DNA from: Octopus vulgaris
Lineage: Eukaryota
Direction: 5' to 3'
NCBI GenBank assembly: GCA_951406725.2
Contig: OX597821.1
Span: forward strand, 114,576,001 to 114,640,000
Length of the DNA stretch: 64,000 nucleotides
Shown: positions 21,001-45,577 of the stretch, in pieces
Numbering within the stretch: position 1 is the stretch's first letter
Layout of the letters: each line of letters starts with the position of its first letter
Translations under genes and position numbers: made by a program
Notes under the pieces: model-generated
What the model was told of the DNA's origin: nothing
Databases searched by the model: none
What the model saw: only the letters and a program-made list of their open reading frames with translations

Positions 21001-24000
21001 TGCCAGTGGCATATAAAAAGCACCCACTACATTCACGGCACAAGTGCCAGGCGAGGCTGGCAATGGCCACGATTGGTTGGTGCTTTTTATGTGCCACCGG
21101 CACGGAGGCCAGTCGAGGTGGCGCTGGCAACGGCCACATTCGGATGGTTCTTTTACATGCCACCGGCACTGGTATCACAACTACAATTTCCATTGATTTT
21201 TGAAAAGCACCATTCAAGCGTTGGGCCTCATGGAGGCAAAGTGGCTGATGCCAGTGGCAAGTGAAAAGCTCCTTTCAAGTGTTGGGCCTCATAGAGGCAA
21301 TGACTGAGACCTTTGGTATTATGTTGTACTTGAGAAGACCCATCAAACCAAGCAAAATCACAGTCATGGCAGATACTGGTGTCATGCAAATGGCACGTAA
21401 AAGCACCCATGACACTCTCAGAGTGGTTGGCGTTAAGAAGGGCATCCAGCTGTAGAAAGCCATGCCAAATCAGACTGGAGTCTGATGCAGCCTTCCAGCG
21501 TGCCAGCCCTGGTCAAACCCTCCAACCCATACCAACATGGACAATGGACGATAAATGATGATATATATATATATACTCACTTTTGCGTTTCAGTCATTTG
21601 ACTGTGGCCATGCTGGAGCACCACCTTTAGTCAAAGAAATCGACCCCAGGACTTATTCTTTATAAGCCTAGTACTTATTCTGTCAGTTTCTTTTGCCGAA
21701 CTGCTAAGTTTCAGCGACCTAAACACACCAAGATCAGTTGTCAAGCAATGGTGGGTGGACAAACACAGAAACAAACACACACATAAATATATATATATAT
21801 GACAGGCTTCTTTCAGTTTCCATCTACCAAATCCATTCACAAGGTTTTGGTCAGCCTGGGACTATGGTAAAAGACACTTGCTCAAGGTGCCATGCAGTGG
21901 GACTGAACCCAGAACCTTGTGGTTGGGAAGAAAGCTTCTTACCACACAGCCACGCAGCAGGTTTCTTTCAGTTTCCATCTATCAAATCCACTCACAAGGC
22001 TTTGGTCAGCCTGAGGTTATAGTAGAAAACATTCAAGGTGCCATGCAGTGGGACTGAACCCAGAACCACATGGTTGGGAAACAAGCTTCTTACTGCATAG
22101 CCACCATAACCAGAAGTAATACAAAGAATACAGTAACGGTTGTTGTTCTTTGAAGCTGTTATATTTTTGTCTTTTTCTTCCTTAGATATGGGTGCTTGGG
22201 CTCATCTCCCGGTGCCTGAACCTGTCCTCCAAGCAATTGCTGAGCAAGGTTTTACTCAACCAACTCCAATACAGAACGAATGTCTGATTCCTGCTATTGA
22301 GTACAAGCAAGACATTGTTGGTGCTGCTGCAACTGTAAGAGACCTGCATATCTTATCTGTTTATTAACTAAATGTTTTAGCATTAGTTGCCTTTGGGGTT
22401 TTTGTTACAGAGTCTCTCTTGAGAGTAAAAACATGTAAACTATTTTTTTAAATAATGTAATTACACTTAATCAAGATATGGACTTTATAAGACTTGTTTT
22501 AATATTTTTCTTATGTAAAGTGGCAAGCTGGCCGAATCATTAGCACACTGGGCAAAGATGCTGAGCAGCACTTCATCCAACTTTATGTTCTGAGTTCAAA
22601 TTACACTGAGGTTACCTTTCGTCCTTCAGGATCTGTAAAATAATTACCAGTTGAACTTTGGGGGTTCCATGTAAATAGACTTACCTGCTCCTCTAAAATT
22701 GCTGGTCTTGTGCCAAAATTTGAATCTAATATTTTCCTATGTCTTTGTTGTAGGGAAGTGGTAAAACTTTAGCCTTTGGAATCCCTATTTTATACAATAT
22801 CATGGAAGATGAAAAGATTAAGGCATCTAAAAGCAAAAAGCTTGAAACCGATAATGAGAACAATGAAAGCAGCCTGGCTCCAGAGAATGAAGATGAAGGA
22901 AAGTCTAATGATGAGAACGAGACACTGAAAAAAGACAATGATAACCAAAATGTTGAAATTAATGTCATGGCTACAGATCGTGAACTTTTAGAAGATGAAG
23001 TTGATGATGAAGATGGTGTATTTAAAAATTTTGAAGATTCTCAGATTTCAGATGAGGATGGTTTAAAAGCTTTAATTCTCACTCCAACACGTGAACTGGC
23101 AGTACAAGTGAAAAACCATTTAGTTGCTGTAGCTAAATACACAAAAATAAAGGTCAGTTACTTTTGTGTTTGTTTTTGTTGTGTTTAATAGCACAAGTTA
23201 TTCTTTGTTGTTATCAGTTTCTAGATTGTTCTCTTATCAGAATCAAAATCACTCAAAAATCAATGAAAATTGTAGTTGTGACACCAGTGCTGGTGGCACG
23301 TAAAAGAACCATCCGAACGTGGCCATTGCCAGCGCTGCCCTGACTGGCCTCCGTGCCAGTGGCACGTAAAAAGCACCAACCGATCGTGGCCATTACCAGC
23401 CTCGCCTGGCACATAAAAAGCACCCACTACACTCACAGAGTGGTTGGCGTTAGGAAGGGCATCCAGCTGTAGAAACACTGCCAGATCAGACTGGGCCTGG
23501 TGCAGCCTCCTGGCTTCCCAGACCCCAGTTGAACCGTCCAACCCATGCCAGCATGGAAAATGGACGTTAAACGATGATGATGATCCTTCCTGGAATTCTT
23601 ATTATTTTCATATTGTTTGATTCTTCTAAAGTTAATTGCAATTTTCATATTTCCACGGTGATTGTGTTGTGTGTTGAATGAATAATGTATAGTTAGCAAA
23701 TGCTTTGAGCAATCTAATCTATGAAACAAAATCAAAGATGCTCTATTATCATCATTATTGTCTTAACATCTACTTTTCCATGCTTGCATGGGTCATATAG
23801 AATCTATTGAGGCAGATTTTCTCTGCAGATGCCCTTCCTGTCATCAACCTTCACCTGATTTAGAGTTAGGAACTTAAAATCACAACCATTCTAAAACAAG
23901 GTTCTGACATTCTCTTTTTGAATATTTCAATAAATCTTGAGTCTGCGTTGTTACACTCTGTTTTGTATTTTGTTTTCCAGGTGGTTGCTATTATTGGTGG

Positions 24001-34400: not shown

Positions 34401-37400
34401 TGTCTTAAAAGTAAGGAAAAATCCAAGCAGGTTTTATATTAAAGAACCTGATAAGCATATCAGAAACAATATTGGTTTCTCATATACACAGAAGGTCACA
34501 ACTTCTAGAGATGGGTGCAGTTGATTATTTTTTCATTTGTTTTTTTCCATCAATCCTGGGAGGCCGAAGGCCAAAGTTCATTGAATGGAAAGCACTGCTG
34601 CTGGTGCCATGTGTAAAGCACCTTGTGTGCTCTGTAAAGTGGTTGACATGAGAAAGTGCATCCTGCTGTAGAAGTCATGCCAAAACAGGCAAATAGAGGT
34701 GCAGCCCCTGGTGATGCCAGCTTCTGTCAAACCATCCAGCCCTTGCCTGCATGGAAAACAGACATATAATGATAATGGTCATTAAGACCAACTTTAGCAT
34801 CTTTTACTGTCAAACTATCCTCTTCTTGTTTATTGCTGCTACATGGTCTGTGCTCTTCAAGTTGTTCAGACTGTATACCACTTCCACATAAATGTAATCA
34901 TTTCATTTACTGTCCATTTTCCTATCACATCCTATATTTTAACCCTTAACTGCTAATCTTCAGAAACTCAAACTGATTTTACATAAATGACTTTCTCCAG
35001 CAGTGCTGGAGGACCTTTAAATCAAGGGTTCTTAAACTTTTTAATATCTGGGCCAGATCCAAAACCTGAATGTTTTTCAGGGGCTGCACCAAAAAAATTA
35101 AACCACAAGTCAATTTTTTAAAAATGTATTATATTTATAGAAGAAAGACTGTTGGGGGCTGCTGGAAGGATGCATGAGGGCCGTATGTAGCCCTGAGATC
35201 TACAGTTGAGAACTGCTCTTCTAAATTAGTTAAAATAAAGAGATAAGAGCCTTAACCTGATCTGGCTCTTGCTTAACCTGATCTGCACTTCTTTCAGAGG
35301 TGATTGAAAAATTGATCAGTTGGTTGTCTAATTGTGGTTGATCTGACTTCATTGAGGACATGGAATATAGTCCAAATCCCAACAATACATTTTCTTTTAA
35401 TGGTCTCATGAAAAGAGGAATGGCAACATTTCTGAAACTAATGGGGGACAAGTGAACAAATGGAATCAGGTCTCTAAGGTTATCCTCAGACCAGGGACCT
35501 GGTTCCAGTGTTACCATCAGAGTGAACTCTGCTAAAATTACCCAAAGGACAAGCAATGGTTGTTAAACAGAGTCACACTCAATCACAAATGCAACCAATC
35601 CAAGGAGGGGTGGTAGGCTTTGGTATAGTTGCTGTCTGCCCAATTTTATTTACAAACCTTGGGTTGGCCCAAGGAAAAGACTCTTGACAGTTTGCTATGC
35701 CATGTAGGAGGATTGAACCCTAGTTAACACAATAATGAAGTGAATTTCTTAACCACTTTACCTCATGGACATCTTCATAACATTTCTGTGCTAAATCAAC
35801 ATTCCAATCCAACCTAATTCAGTCTGTTTCTATTCAATTTTCAGCCAAAGACTTTGACCAGTTTCCTGTTGACAATAGTTACATACCAGCAATAAATGTC
35901 AGGATGCAGTTGGCACTGAAAATTGATTCTGAAGAACACAGGTTAGTATGGCAGTGTTGCATAATCCTTTCATATTCCTCATGTTTCTTGAAGTCAATCC
36001 TATAACATTTAAACATAAGGGTTCAGTTTTAGTGTTTATTCATAAAGTTATCGCTTCTGTACCTGCTAATTAACTTCAATTGTCTGTAGATGTCATATTT
36101 AATAATAATAAAAAATAATTGTAAATCATGTGTAGAAAATTGCTGAATAGACTTCAAAGAATAAATCCATGGTAATTAAGAGGCTCAATTAGTAATGGGT
36201 CATTAAACTTCAACAAATCATCATCATCATCATTAAAAATGTGTTTTCCAAACTGGCATGGGTTGGACAGGTTGACTAGCTGGCAAGCCTGAGAGCTGCA
36301 CCAGGTTCCATTATCTCTTTTTGACAAAGTTTCTATGATTGGATTCCCTTCATAATGCCAACCACTTTGCAGAGTGTATTGGCTGCTTTTTGCATGGCAC
36401 CGGCACAAGTGCTCTATAGGCAGTACCAGCACGAGTGTTCTGTATGCAGTACCAGCACGAGTGTTCTGTATGCAGTACCAGCATGGGTTCTTTTTATGTG
36501 ACACCAGTGCAGGTGATTTTTTATGCAGCACACTAAGTAAATCCAAATGGGACTGACTTGCTAAAGCAATCTTATAAAGCTACATATTTAGCATAGAACT
36601 AGAAAAGCATAAATTTCACATATAGTTCATATTTTGTTTTCAACAGCTGTTTCATTAAGATAATCAATACGGAATGTATAATTACATAATTGTGATACAT
36701 AATTTAAATTAAGTCAAATTAATTTAAAAACAGAATGCCACATTACTGGTTTAATTGGTATTTAAACAGTAATTGATGAAATTTGAGATCTGCATGTAAA
36801 AATTTTAACAAAGTTTCAAACAAATATTGTTGATAAATTTCTCTTGAGCATCATTAATTCAAACAATGCATTTGAATTAATGTTGTCTCTTGTCCCTATT
36901 TGGGACCATCGATATTAAACTGATTAATTCAAAGAACATGGGCATGTAAAAAGCACCCACTACACTCTCGCATTGAAGGGTGAATATTAAAACAACAATG
37001 ATAGTGTACGTCTGTCCTTATGTACATCTCCTTGTTATTGTGTCAGAGTTATAAATGAAAAGATGTCCAGCCATGGGGAAATACATCATCATCATCGTTT
37101 ATCATCCATTTTCTATGCTAGCATGGGTTGGATGGTTCGACCAGGGTCTGAGAAGCCAGGAGGCTGTGCCAGGCTCCAGTCTGATCTGGCAGTGTTTCTA
37201 CAGCTAGATGCCCTTCCTAATGCCAACCACTCTGCGGGTGTAGTGGATGCTTTTTACATGCCACTAGCACGGGCCAGAGGAAGCTGGCAATGGCCATGAT
37301 CGGTTGGTGCTTTTTATGTGCCACTGGCACAGAAGCCAGTCAAGTTGGCGCTGGCATCAGCCACGTTCGGATGGTGCTTTCTACATGCCACCGGCAAGGG

Positions 37401-38206: not shown

Positions 38207-41086
38207 ATTCTTTATAAAACACTACTTTGTTTCAGTGGCTCAGTGCTTAACCCTTTAGTGTTTAAACCGGCCATATCCGGCCAAAATATTCTACCTATTT
38301 TATATTCAAACTAGTCAGATATGGTCATTCATAGCTATCTTATTGTGTCATTTTAAAAATAAAGAATCACATCATTGAAATCTCAAAGCCATGAAATGAT
38401 GCAAGATTAATTTTACATGGTGTGAATACATAAGCTTTACATTTTACAGAATAATCTGAATGCTAAAGGGTTAAGAAGGGCCTCAAGTTCAAGTAATGGT
38501 GAGATTGTTACACAAACTAATTTCCCCATACCCAGTTTGATTTCATGTAAATCTTCATTAAATGGTGGCTTTAGCAAATTTCTTTTCTAATGTATATTTG
38601 TAGGTTTGACAAGAAAAAACATGAAAATAACTGGTTCCGGAAGACAGCAGAAGAGATGGACATCGAACTGGATGAAGATAACCTGTATCCTTTTTGTCTG
38701 CAGCTCCACCATCACAACTTTTATTTAGAAAATACTCTGTTCTATCTCCTTGAAAAATATTTCATGGCTGTATGATCTGAGTTTATTTCCCAAACATGTG
38801 GTTCCAGGTTCAGTTCCACTGTGTGATAGCTTAGGCATGTGTCTTTTACCACAGCCTTGGCTTGACCAAAGTCTTGCGAGTGGATTTGGTGGGTAAAAAC
38901 TACAAGCTTTTTGTTGTATGTTTGGTGCTCAGCTCACAAATTATCACAAGACTTTGATGTAAGGTTTTAATTTAGATCACTTTAATCTTTTTGTTACTAT
39001 ATTTCTTTTGAAATAGACTGCTTTTGTCTCAATTAATTTTGAAAATAATGAAGAATTTAGTAAAATAATTTTCTCATTATGAAGATGGTGTTTGGAACAA
39101 AACATAAAATTTTGATGGAAAGTTTTAATTTAGGTAACTTTAAACAAGAAGTTCATGTCACAAAACAAAGGGACAGTCTCAGTTGGGGTGGTACCCAGAG
39201 GGTTAATTTTAATAATCTAAAGAGTGAATGACTTGTTAGGCGCAATGTAGAGTGTTTACTGAGATTGTTTTATTGTGTAGTTATTACATTATTTACAATG
39301 GATGGATAGGTGTCCTCATCTTGTTTGTTATTACCGCAACATTTCAGCTGATGTATTCTCCAGCCTTCATCAGGTGTTCTGGTGGAATTTCAAACCCAAC
39401 CCTTTATTTCACTGATGGGGTATTCTTTTCTCATTCCTAAGGTATTCTTTTTGCTGATGTTATTTTTTCTGTAGATGTTATTTCCCAAGTCTCTGCCTGG
39501 GACTGAACTCAGAATCTGAGGGTTAGTAGCCCAGGCTCTTATCCACTACCCTATATGCCCGTAGACCTACAGACATATATCATAGTGGGTAAGAATGTAG
39601 GCTATGCTATATGCTTGTAGGCCTACGCGCATATAGCATAGTGGATAAGAGTGCAGGCTACTAACCCTCGGTTTCTGAGTTCAACCCCAGGCAGGGACTT
39701 CATCATCATCGTTTAACACCCGTTTTCCGTGCTAGCATAGGTTGGACAGTTCGACTGGGGTCTGGGAAGCCAGGAGGCTGCACCAGGCTCCAGTCTGATC
39801 TGGCAGTGTTTCTACAGCTGGATGCCCTTTCTAACGCCAATCATTCCGTGAGTGTAATGGGTGCTTTTTACGTGCCACAGGCACAGGTGCCAGAGGAGGC
39901 TGGCATCAGCCACGATCGGTTGGTGCTTTTTACATGCCACCGGCACAGAAGCCAGTCAAGGCATCGGCCACGGTGCTGGCATAATATCAACAGAAAAAGT
40001 AACATCAGCAAAAAAAAAAAATGAATATCTTAAGAATGAGAACAGAGTACCCCATTAGTGAAATTAAGGGTTGGGTTTGAAATGCTACCAGAACACCTGA
40101 TGAAGGCTGGAGAGTACATCAGCTGAAACAAGGTGAGGACACATATCTGTCCATTGTAAATAATGTACATAATTCCTCGTCTCAAAAATATAGAATAGTA
40201 GTTATTACTTGATTTGCATTGATATTGTTGTAACCTTGACCCAATGTTCACAGATATGACCTTGGGGACTCAAGAGACCAAGCAAACCTACGACATAAAA
40301 TCGCTTCCATGAAAATGCAGTTACAGACGATGTTGAAAACGAAACTAGTTTCTAAGAAACTAGTCACCAAGTACCCTACCAAAATGGGAAAACTTCGTGA
40401 TCCCATGGAAATTAGTAAGTTGAAGATTTATGTTTTTTTGAGGGAAGGCTTAAATATTGAAAGCGTTGACTCTCCCTTGTGGTACCTTCAGATTTATTTA
40501 ATCAACCCTGTGATTATAACTGAACATAGCCACTGATTGTTGCTGTGATGGTTTCACATTGTCCAGTAGACACTTGGAACCCTGTCAGGTCAAAACAACG
40601 TAGACATAAGTGTGAAAGGGTGGAGGTTTATGTATTTTAGATTGATGAATTGCCAAAAATGTTTATTGTTGAGAGAAAAACACAAAAATAGATGCAGATA
40701 TCTTATTTGAATTTGGACACAGGAATTCTAGATTTGTCTTACTTTGTGGTGTTGGTGATGGCATAGGTAGCAGCTGGTGCTGTGGAGATGGTTATGCATC
40801 TTCTATTTGAATTTCTGTGTTTAAAGACCCAACAGAAAGAATTCTTCAATGGCTTTAGATTTTAATATGTGTTTTTTTTTTATCTTTAGGCAATTCTTCT
40901 TCAAGTGCAATTAGTGAATTACAAAATCAGAGGTTGTTGATGAAGGACAAGAAGAAACAGAAAAAGAAGATTGTTATAAAAGATGTGAATGAATTAAAGA
41001 AAAATAATTTAATTGAAAAGAAACGTCAGAAGGCAATGAGACGGAAGAAAAGAAAAGAACTGTTGATGAAACAATTCAGTGAATAA
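14880..41086 (+). CDS. DDX24: ATP-dependent RNA helicase DDX24/MAK5-like, whole spliced gene (17 coding exons, about 763 aa)
   Basis: Hand-joined exons give one open frame of 2292 nt with matching intron phases. Motifs: Q (GFTQPTPIQ), I (ATGSGKT), Ia (PTRELAVQV), GG, Ib (TPGRL), II (DEAD), III (SAT), IV (LVFCN), QxxR ([12 protein letters not shown]), V ([11 protein letters not shown]), VI (HRSGRTAR). The acidic insert between motifs I and Ia and the C-terminal KYPT are typical of DDX24/MAK5. Confidence 0.93.
15960..16455 (-). mobile_element. RTE-derived 3'-UTR element / SINE-like repeat with (GAT)n tail
   Basis: Shared body gagtggttggcgttaggaagggcatccagctgtagaaa...catggaaa..ggacgttaaacgatgatg. 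Other copies: about 17810-18030(+), 19960-20520(+), 20830-21560(+), 23250-23585(+), 24595-24950(-), 32880-33160(+), 33730-34060(-), 39700-39980(-). Confidence 0.8.
16850..17112 (+). mobile_element. RTE LINE 3' end with C2H2-like zinc fingers
   Basis: [21 protein letters not shown]...[21 protein letters not shown]; same type as 49230-50207. Confidence 0.65.
17369..17447 (+). CDS. DDX24: DDX24 exon 2 ([26 protein letters not shown]; basic, NLS-like)
   Basis: ttttctcattgtag acceptor, gtaagt donor, phase 0 to 1, open frame. Confidence 0.7.
18076..18305. mobile_element. TTAA-flanked MITE (piggyBac/Kolobok-like)
   Basis: TTAA-CCCTTT...AAAGAG-TTAA. Confidence 0.5.
18778..18816 (+). CDS. DDX24: DDX24 exon 3 (39 nt, [13 protein letters not shown])
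   Basis: strong ttttatttttattttcag acceptor and gtaagt donor, phase 1 to 1; supported by splice signals only. Confidence 0.6.
19518..20582. mobile_element. TTAA-flanked MITE interrupted by a SINE (about 19630-19900) and an RTE tail (about 19960-20520)
   Basis: TTAA-CCCTTTGTTGCCA...GGTACCAAAAGGG-TTAA; a related copy at about 38980-39206. Confidence 0.65.
20680..20745 (+). CDS. DDX24: DDX24 exon 4 (66 nt, [22 protein letters not shown])
   Basis: ccctcaccag acceptor, CAG|GTAAGG donor, phase 1 to 1; supported by splice signals only. Confidence 0.6.
22186..22334 (+). CDS. DDX24: DDX24 exon 5 (Q motif)
   Basis: [30 protein letters not shown]...DIVGAAAT; cttccttag / gtaaga. Confidence 0.93.
22754..23152 (+). 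CDS. DDX24: DDX24 exon 6 (motif I, acidic insert, motif Ia)
   Basis: [13 protein letters not shown]...[20 protein letters not shown]; ttgtag / gtcagt; 399 nt, phase 0 to 0. Confidence 0.95.
23981..24091 (+). CDS. DDX24: DDX24 exon 7 (GG, motif Ib)
   Basis: [37 protein letters not shown]; ttttccag / gtatgt. Confidence 0.95.
25090..25208 (+). CDS. DDX24: DDX24 exon 8 (DEAD motif)
   Basis: [23 protein letters not shown]; tttcatcag / gttagt; phase 0 to 2. Confidence 0.95.
26296..26429 (+). CDS. DDX24: DDX24 exon 9 (motif III)
   Basis: [13 protein letters not shown]; cctttgcag / gtaagt; phase 2 to 1. Confidence 0.93.
27538..28902 (+). mobile_element. 5'-truncated CR1-clade LINE in DDX24 intron 9
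   Basis: Unbroken RT ORF ([49 protein letters not shown]), short 3' UTR, (TAAC)n tail, candidate TSD ATTTAA at 27532-27537 and 28903-28908. Confidence 0.92.
27575..28810 (+). pseudogene. LINE ORF2 reverse-transcriptase fragment (411 aa); no endonuclease, catalytic site FAND
   Basis: ORF track; the RT YxDD motif reads FAND. Confidence 0.85.
29688..29806 (+). CDS. DDX24: DDX24 exon 10
   Basis: [34 protein letters not shown] fits the DDX24 inter-domain linker; phase 1 to 0 fits its neighbours; the acceptor is atypical (TA repeat). Confidence 0.85.
30519..31329. mobile_element. mariner-derived MITE (TA TSD) with a nested SINE at 31018-31248
   Basis: TIRs TGAGGGTGAATCAAAAAGTAATGCCATTTT / AAAATGGCATTACTTTTTGACTCACGCTCA; mariner C-terminal remnant ([27 protein letters not shown]); SINE flanked by a 24-bp TSD. 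Confidence 0.85.
31503..31680 (+). CDS. DDX24: DDX24 exon 11 (motif IV, QxxR)
   Basis: [21 protein letters not shown]...[17 protein letters not shown]; ctttgcag / gtaagt. Confidence 0.95.
32252..32355 (+). CDS. DDX24: DDX24 exon 12 (motif V)
   Basis: [30 protein letters not shown]; tttttag / gttagt; phase 1 to 0. Confidence 0.95.
34237..34354 (+). CDS. DDX24: DDX24 exon 13 (motif VI)
   Basis: [26 protein letters not shown]; long pyrimidine tract, cttag / gtaagt. Confidence 0.95.
35845..35941 (+). CDS. DDX24: DDX24 exon 14
   Basis: [31 protein letters not shown]; ttttcag / gttagt; phase 1 to 2. Confidence 0.9.
37085..38020 (-). mobile_element. RTE LINE 3' portion (ORF end plus long 3' UTR)
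   Basis: [15 protein letters not shown]...[12 protein letters not shown] and [16 protein letters not shown] on the minus strand; (GAT)n tail. Confidence 0.8.
38251..38470. mobile_element. TTAA-flanked MITE (piggyBac-like)
   Basis: TTAA-CCCTTTAG...CTAAAGGG-TTAA. Confidence 0.75.
38604..38684 (+). CDS. DDX24: DDX24 exon 15
   Basis: [26 protein letters not shown]; ttgtag acceptor; followed by U12-type donor GTATCCTTT. Confidence 0.9.
38685..40253 (+). other. U12-type (minor spliceosome) GT-AG intron of DDX24
   Basis: 5' site GTATCCTTT; CCTTGAC branch point at 40234-40240, with the branch A 14 nt from the 3' end; no polypyrimidine tract; the join restores the DDX24 frame. Confidence 0.9.
39281..40170. 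mobile_element. Head-to-head fold-back of two tRNA-headed retroelement copies with hammerhead-like cores
   Basis: 39281-39560 is the reverse complement of 39620-39698 plus 39981-40170; pol III-like A/B boxes; CTGATGA-stem-GAAA at 39333-39378(-) and 40092-40135(+). Confidence 0.75.
40254..40414 (+). CDS. DDX24: DDX24 exon 16
   Basis: [27 protein letters not shown]...KYPTKMG; U12-type branch point plus cag acceptor; gtaagt donor. Confidence 0.88.
40890..41086 (+). CDS. DDX24: DDX24 exon 17 (last coding exon, K/R-rich tail, TAA stop)
   Basis: tttttatctttag acceptor, phase 1; [26 protein letters not shown]...KQFSE*. Confidence 0.85.
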
Positions 41087-44689: not shown

Positions 44690-45577
44690 AGTGTAAGTGC
44701 CCTGAGAGAAATGCTGGACATAAGAAGCATCAGATGTGGTATGCAAGAGAGACGTTTGCGCTGGTATGGTCATGTACTATGGATGGATGAGGAGAGATGT
44801 GTGAAGAAATGCCACTCCCAAGCAGTTGAAGGTATCCGGAGAGAGAGGTAGACCCAGGAAGACATGGGATGAGGTAGTCAAGCATGACCTTCGAACGTTG
44901 GGCATTACAGGCAATGACGAAAGACTGAGATCTGTGAAGATATGCTGTGACTGCAAAGACCCGACAAATAATGTGAGTTCATGGCTGCTTCCTGCACCAG
45001 TTTCGCATAGCCCCAGCCCATCCAGAACTGGATTGCAGAACGACCTGCTGTGCTTACCTTGGATCATAGGGTGACCTACTGTGCTTGAGGAGACCTATTG
45101 AGTCAAGTACATCAACATCAAAACAAAAATCAAATGGAAATTGTAGTTGAGATACCTGTGCTGGCAGCACATAAAAAGCACCATCCAAACATGACCGATG
45201 CCAGCGCCGCCTTGACTGGCTTCTGTGCCGGTGGCACATGAACTGCTGTGCTTGAGGAGACCTATTGAGTCAAGTACATCAACATCAAAAAAAAAAATCA
45301 AATGGAAATAGTAGTTGTGATACTTGTGCCGGTGGCACATAGAAAGCACCATCTGAACGTGGCCGATGCCAGCGCCGCCTTGACTGGCTTCTGTGCCGGT
45401 GACACGTAAAAAGCACCCACTACACTCATGGAGTGGTTGGTGTTAGGAAAGGCATTCAGCTGTAGAAACACTGCCAGATCAGATTGGAGCCTAGTACAGC
45501 CTCCTGGCTTCCCAGACCCCGGTTGAACTGTCCAACCCGTACTAGTATGGAAAATGGACATTAAACGATGATGATGA

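Follow-up and report, generated by a model that had tools for sequence, protein, structure and literature searches.

A decayed inverted Penelope-type insertion in Octopus vulgaris and a candidate tRNA-derived promoter in its family

Introduction

How did a tRNA-like segment and a hammerhead ribozyme motif come to lie next to each other, twice and head to head, inside a single intron of Octopus vulgaris? We investigated this fold-back in a window of 64,000 nucleotides (GenBank assembly GCA_951406725.2, contig OX597821.1, positions 114,576,001 to 114,640,000, forward strand; coordinates below count from the first letter of the window). The original prediction took it for two separate copies of a chimera between a short interspersed element (SINE) and a retrozyme, forming a palindrome of about 900 bp. 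Our best explanation, held with moderate confidence on sequence grounds, is a decayed inverted insertion of Penelope/Poseidon type, in which a tRNA-Arg-derived segment of the pseudo-long terminal repeat (pseudo-LTR) is likely to be a promoter for RNA polymerase III (Pol III). That the fold-back is one decayed Penelope-type insertion is almost certain.

One insertion and its family

A single insertion spans 39288-40197, bounded by one 11-bp target-site duplication (39277-39287 on the left, where the final 3 nt also fit the element end, and 40198-40208 on the right, where the initial 3 nt do). Because this one direct repeat encloses the whole unit, the unit reflects one insertion event; two independent insertions are ruled out, and the arms are not separate SINE copies. 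They do lie head to head, as had been claimed. The minus arm (39566 to 39288, minus strand) is a pseudo-LTR copy from about −6 to +275, counted from the start of the tRNA-like head; it forms the short-tail end and matches the majority sequence of subfamily B (see below) at 90%. The plus arm consists of the tRNA-Arg-like head (39622-39699) and the remaining pseudo-LTR (39981-40197), with the start codon of the open reading frame (ORF; 40036), the hammerhead, and a long tail to +302 (92% to the majority). Between these parts, an unrelated repeat of high copy number, with a tail of (ATG)n type, inserted later (39700-39980, minus strand, 281 bp) and is looped out of the hairpin. The predicted pre-mRNA fold pairs merely 177 outer and 88 inner bp, about 265 bp in total, in place of the proposed 900-bp palindrome. 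The centre is a nested junction (39566-39621) of two extra short head-start pieces, one per strand, each bounded at about −6; both long arms extend to about −6 as well, and a 10-nt palindrome (39617-39626) marks where they meet the centre pieces. Identity between the arms is 89%, a mutual likeness no greater than that of each arm to the majority. A miniature inverted-repeat transposable element or DNA foldback transposon was also considered and ruled out, as each arm is the 3' end of a retroelement and their tails differ in length. A related, diverged organism (organism E) has contigs of single-copy depth that run across the left junction, with 10 differences in 228 nt, and across the nested centre, with 17 differences in 175 nt, which indicates that the insertion is older than the split from that organism and that its centre is not conserved. 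A search across sequencing runs listed no match recorded as RNA, a result that counts neither way.

Comparison of the window arm with the source genome gave 2520 first-look candidates, 40 of which were scored, and an ORF query gave 150 scored matches. The family comprises two subfamilies, A (4815 exact matches of one 26-mer) and B (76 of one 24-mer), the window locus belonging to B. Some copies run upstream into a reading frame, and among 30 ORF-anchored loci there are 23 in which the tRNA-like head follows an ORF for reverse transcriptase (RT) and endonuclease, the hammerhead usually coming next. The ORF stop codon ends 29 nt before the head, so the head doubles as 5' leader for the tandem unit that follows. 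The element order is ORF stop, 29 nt, tRNA-like head, start codon, hammerhead, and tail; the start codon lies about 120 nt past the head start, upstream of the hammerhead, and in locus L297 the frame reads through the hammerhead into the ORF. ORF-bearing copies occur in both subfamilies, and the additional 27 nt of subfamily B preserve the frame.

The majority ORF has 787 open codons and is a single frame with RT followed by a C-terminal GIY-YIG endonuclease (DKG, MGSP, YVDD, CxC, and GET motifs). One locus, L188, is a nearly whole element, and its RT piece scored above the PF00078 cut-off (2 of 5 pieces match); Pfam matched neither the endonuclease nor short ORF pieces, and the GIY-YIG domain was read from motifs and alignment. 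We identified 51 longer relatives, and the alignment has the Penelope/Poseidon layout, with none of the extra zinc finger that marks Neptune and Nematis (PMC8557442) in the RT-endonuclease linker. The pseudo-LTR with hammerhead, partial tandems, inverted partner, and one-end tail of Penelope-like elements are all present. The sampled ORF copies bear stops and frameshifts, and the window arms differ from the majority by 8–10%. Tandem partial pseudo-LTR arrays were also seen, with three units in L135, and a fold-back at C9:102530656-102532167 (L003/L009) has about 950 nt between its arms.

The head and hammerhead are therefore the pseudo-LTR of an autonomous RT and GIY-YIG element, and the idea of a SINE/retrozyme-like chimera was abandoned, although many copies are indeed short units beginning at the head. 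A separate SINE family sharing the head was rejected, since 24 of 30 head-anchored loci have the hammerhead portion of the unit downstream; of the other 6, 4 retain the (TAA)n that follows and 2 break off inside the head. The unit is not a non-autonomous SINE that has just its 3' tail in common with a distinct mobiliser, as the whole of it, including the head, belongs to the autonomous element. Nor does the locus resemble a non-LTR retrozyme with head-to-tail units and intact hammerheads: it is a head-to-head pair with degenerate cores.

The fold-back is the usual insertion product of this family. We drew two samples, each anchored by exact motifs lying downstream of the head. For B, 66 motif sites gave 62 insertions once 4 second views of the same locus had been removed, and the loci covered most of the 76 matches. 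For A, the initial 43 Mb of contig C1 gave 65 insertions after removal of 5 second arms, with one pair that seems to be duplicated. An inverted partner lies directly beside 45 of the 62 B insertions (one spurious), 39 of the 65 A insertions, and 25 of the 30 in a head-anchored sample. One long and one short tail, as at the window locus (+302, +275), characterise 31 of the 45 B pairs. Inverted 5'-truncated partners and one-sided tails are among the features described for Penelope-like elements in parts of PMC8557442. On its own, the window locus is an ordinary decayed inverted insertion, one of thousands, and the interest lies at the level of the family.

About one-fifth of the sampled A copies (e.g. 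L211, L236, L246, L271) start within long (TAA)n or (CAA)n tracts, and the element may therefore seed or anneal to microsatellites.

The tRNA-like head and the 5' ends

The tRNA likeness was seen by alignment only. Among 12 tRNA genes of 8 anticodon types from the same genome, tRNA-Arg was the best match (z of 9–10 for the majorities and 7–9 for the window arms), above all 300 shuffles. ARAGORN called no tRNA at the window region, in 56 loci, or in both majorities, and Rfam none at the window region or in 20 loci. In both majorities and the plus arm, the A box is at +7 and the B box at +52, matching the tRNA-Arg(TCT) of the genome. The pol III-like head claimed for each copy thus stands for the plus arm (A box 39634-39644, B box 39679-39687), whereas the minus-arm head (39487-39560) has one mismatch in each box. 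Elsewhere, L100:138-2854 gave seven tRNA calls in 3 kb, mostly tRNA-Cys; its Ser(ACT) and Cys(ACA) calls resemble decayed copies.

Copies pile up at the head. Of the arms that extend as far as +20, those with an end within −20..+20 number 48 of 59 in A and 25 of 41 in B, corresponding to rate ratios of 14–20 (p<1e-10) and 3–7 (p<3e-4), respectively; A arms ending in a (TAA)n tract were scored as ended there. In the head-anchored sample, 27 of 30 begin within −8..+8, two of the 27 having more upstream element beyond a gap. Non-inverted copies stop at the same boundary (−7 to +3) against unique flank, and B junctions, that of the window locus included, retain templated bases to −3..−6. A TATA-like word was noticed at −35..−29, formed by the final codons and stop of the ORF, about 25–30 nt before the inferred start.

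The ORF is also poor in the Pol III terminator. The majority ORF (2395 nt) contains no TTTT, where synonymous shuffles expect 2.7 (P 0.034) and base shuffles 4.4 (P 0.012); for an earlier 445-codon piece, the deficit was not significant (P 0.15). Single copies hold 4 TTTT runs against 51.5 expected, although these copies share one master. A first scan of metagenomes yielded no relative. For the relatives from other species, we counted the same segment in 52 of 80 metagenome loci (those with long matches) and found 137 runs against 96 expected. Scaled to their rate, the probability of no TTTT is at most 0.002, a rough figure because the relatives differ in host and composition. Among the 43 relatives with enough downstream DNA, none had an A and B box pair after the ORF, while 26 had a hammerhead-like motif.

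Proposed mechanism and its alternatives

In the scheme that we propose, Pol III would start in a tandem unit about 6 nt ahead of the head, a placement in which the sequence gives us fair confidence. The element protein would nick both target strands and begin reverse transcription at two tail sites; in vitro, anole Poseidon has both strands nicked and extended, with internal RT starts, according to the experiments cited from PMC11167929. The two complementary DNAs (cDNAs) would run off at the RNA 5' end and join head to head via microhomology, producing the fold-back, which CpG loss, an AAAC-mediated deletion, and the unrelated insertion subsequently eroded. Extending this, a tRNA-Arg promoter may have been captured and terminators purged from the 2.4-kb ORF, such that Pol III transcribes the element at full length and thousands of short SINE-like copies arise from the same start, a SINE generated within its own mobiliser; we put this forward tentatively, as a possibility that we would not yet favour.

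Several points weigh against a Pol III promoter in the head. The known Penelope promoter is presumably one for Pol II. It is internal and overlaps a spliced intron in the account cited here (PMC8557442). The Pol III reading gives no account of how an uncapped RNA could serve for translation. A single master sequence underlies the TTTT result, 5 of the 52 relatives are also TTTT-free over about 860 nt, and a second RT-type family of the same genome (L198, L211, L221, L273) is low in TTTT, with 2 runs in 4 coding-strand stretches. At the boundary itself, a hairpin is predicted at −14..+9 in both subfamilies (−9.6 kcal/mol in A); in A it means that the boundary could fall anywhere from −2 to −7, and numerous A junctions form perfect palindromes with −2/−1 as their centre. 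Finally, 6 of 30 ORF-start copies have an upstream pseudo-LTR reaching the head, and as 4 of these 6 run past it, longer templates also exist.

The last three observations speak for a rival reading, in which the same insertion carries the head as an inert captured fragment and the hairpin causes the pile-up of 5' ends by cDNA snap-back or end annealing. We consider this doubtful. Non-inverted copies, too, stop at the boundary, and the templated bases to −3..−6 in B junctions, the window one included, speak against it; it also leaves the intact A and B boxes of both subfamilies and the lack of TTTT unaccounted for.

Alternatively, Pol III may yield a short SINE-like RNA only, the mRNA arising by Pol II read-through of tandems, and the short copies would be a Penelope-dependent SINE or retrozyme born inside its mobiliser. 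This overlaps the Pol III promoter reading and differs from it solely in the length of the RNA. Two template classes fit it, the majority of solo copies having their start at the head and 4 of 6 ORF-bearing tandem units extending beyond it, and so does the origin of animal non-LTR retrozymes from Penelope pseudo-LTRs put forward in the relevant part of bioRxiv 10.64898/2026.07.22.740005. Conversely, the ORF has no terminator to shorten the RNA, and ORF-bearing copies have been kept in both subfamilies, with the extra 27 nt of B in frame. We judge it unlikely.

Hammerhead cores and the hairpin

The cores begin at 39373 on the minus strand and 40097 on the plus strand. In minimal Penelope hammerheads, as described in the cited part of PMC4209133, an extra base lies between A9 and G10.1, a G10.1-C11.1 pair is present, 15.2-16.2 is palindromic, and helix III is absent; weak cleavage is expected, as dimers only. 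The predicted type was borne out, as both subfamily majorities fit this scheme: CUGANGA, G10.1-C11.1, GAAA, the palindromic 15.2-16.2, UH, and stem I are all present, so that the consensus holds the stem I pairing and full minimal core, with only 3 bp plus a mismatch in stem I of the B majority. Compared with that description, neither of the two window copies has an intact set of minimal type I features. Both lack the G10.1-C11.1 pair; one has no cleavage site and the other a broken stem I. The minus-strand copy (39333-39379) carries C11.1>U and C15.2>U besides the broken stem I, and the plus-strand remnant (40091-40135) likewise carries C11.1>U and has lost 18 nt between two AAAC repeats, and with them the cleavage triplet, stem III, and the partner of stem I. 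The loss of 18 nt after GAAA had thus been called correctly, whereas the statement that the plus copy otherwise kept the same core had not; the suspicion that both copies are inactive agrees with their degenerate cores, which are probably dead.

Such decay is common. Of 91 cores from B loci, 9 are fully intact, and of 88 from A loci, 23 (32 of 179 together, leaving 147 degenerate); the cleavage site is deleted in 4 of 91 and 7 of 88 (11 of 179), and any gap in the site occurs in 22 of 91 and 16 of 88. A search aimed at the deletion found exactly the same 18-nt loss in at least 5 subfamily A loci, and it occurs in 1 of the 88 unbiased A cores. Rfam found no hammerhead at the window region or in 20 loci, and plain minimum-free-energy folding did not produce the hammerhead fold. 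Rfam matches to mir-3149 and mir-1277 fell far short of the gathering scores and are due to the hairpin alone. Since the first codons of the ORF enclose the hammerhead (L297:1338-1640), cleavage would remove the start codon; P0003 (53% identical) has the same N-terminal peptide.

As the deletion has an AAAC repeat at each edge and is found again at other loci, it can be explained without selection, and because the antisense core is also dead, the asymmetry between sense and antisense copies shows no selection. The loss of the cleavage site is very probably a recurrent microhomology deletion and not a selected change. The original prediction had also allowed that the hairpin is functional, as an editing substrate or a modulator of minor-intron splicing. 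Long intronic duplexes are typical ADAR substrates, and the approximately 265 bp predicted to pair in the pre-mRNA would form one. The insertion is also common to organism E, and retrozymes are under-represented in Xenopus introns in the data cited from bioRxiv 10.64898/2026.07.22.740005. Nevertheless, a function combined with selected removal of the sense hammerhead is improbable, given the recurrent deletion, the dead antisense core, the higher divergence from organism E in the hairpin centre than across the left junction, arms no closer to each other than to the majority, and a branch point outside the hairpin. The intronic hairpin is most likely neutral.

Relation to known systems

The octopus family shares with Poseidon of Anolis carolinensis a single ORF with RT followed by a GIY-YIG-type endonuclease (cited parts of PMC11167929 and PMC8557442), a hammerhead overlapping the ORF start, which in Poseidon lies in the hammerhead, and a tail between two RT start sites (PMC11167929, in part), and with the Penelope/Poseidon clade a 30–40 nt tail at one end only, an inverted 5'-truncated partner, and partial tandems (same parts of both papers). 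It differs from Poseidon as described there in the A/B-box head within the pseudo-LTR, the sharp 5' boundary at that head, and the TTTT-free ORF. The schistosome SINE-like elements Sm-alpha and Sj-alpha likewise are dispersed repeats in which a Pol III-type promoter precedes a hammerhead, but in the cited part of PMC6765202 they are non-coding with cleaving hammerheads, whereas the octopus unit is the pseudo-LTR of a coding element and its minimal hammerhead overlaps the ORF. Animal non-LTR retrozymes are similar in that they are short, do not code for protein, carry a type I hammerhead, and are kin to Penelope pseudo-LTRs (parts of PMC7761336 and bioRxiv 10.64898/2026.07.22.740005). Their head-to-tail tandems are said in PMC7761336 to be promoterless, in contrast to the octopus copies, which are mostly head-to-head pairs with a promoter-like head. 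That animal retrozymes descend from pseudo-LTRs is the argument of bioRxiv 10.64898/2026.07.22.740005, in whose cited portion the words "tRNA" and "promoter" do not appear. Penelope-like elements are annotated in Octopus vulgaris (PMC13282606), with hammerheads unmentioned in the part cited, and nothing decisive came from PMC6685494 or PMC4824008.

In the literature, we found no autonomous Penelope element with a tRNA-derived pseudo-LTR, although repeat libraries and supplements (e.g. of PMC13282606) may already contain the family. A tRNA-derived stretch likely to act as a Pol III promoter would be unusual in a protein-coding transposon. The question bears on how Penelope-like elements are transcribed and on the origin of hammerhead SINEs and retrozymes. 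If a coding element does combine a tRNA promoter with an ORF free of terminators, Penelope would be tied to the schistosome type of Pol III/hammerhead SINE, and translation of a Pol III RNA could be put to the test in it.

Host intron and neighbourhood

The host intron (38685-40253, plus strand, 1569 nt, read from the sequence) bears U12-type signals, and its flanking exons fuse in frame, in agreement with the U12 assignment made earlier. The 5' site is GTATCCTTT at 38685, a CCTTGAC branch-point-like motif occupies 40234-40240, and the AG ends at 40253; the 5' site thus fits RTATCCTT and the putative branch point fits CCTTRAY at 10–20 nt from the 3' site. By itself, the GTATCCTTT motif is not rare, with 1.58 chance matches expected and 1 observed in the window. 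RTATCCTTT at 38685-38693 is its sole occurrence in the window, and it was not seen at the other helicase donors inspected (near 23152, 24095, 25215, 32360, and 34359). The hairpin ends at 40167, about 67 nt ahead of CCTTGAC, close to the 65 nt given before, and the branch-point motif falls outside the predicted long hairpin. Exons upstream of the intron on the plus strand bear DEAD-box helicase motifs; we take the gene to be DDX24, and one host exon gave no PDB match.

The repeat inserted at 39700-39980 has 12 other alignments of at least 170 nt within the window, recurring, for example, at 23333-23583, 37083-37344, and 45325-45577, with internal tandem units of about 62 nt. It may be MetaSINE-like. 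As it lies on both strands within the helicase gene, the pre-mRNA has many other possible duplexes. A further high-copy repeat in the same intron (38953-39143) has very high contig depth and two 41-nt copies spaced 158 nt.

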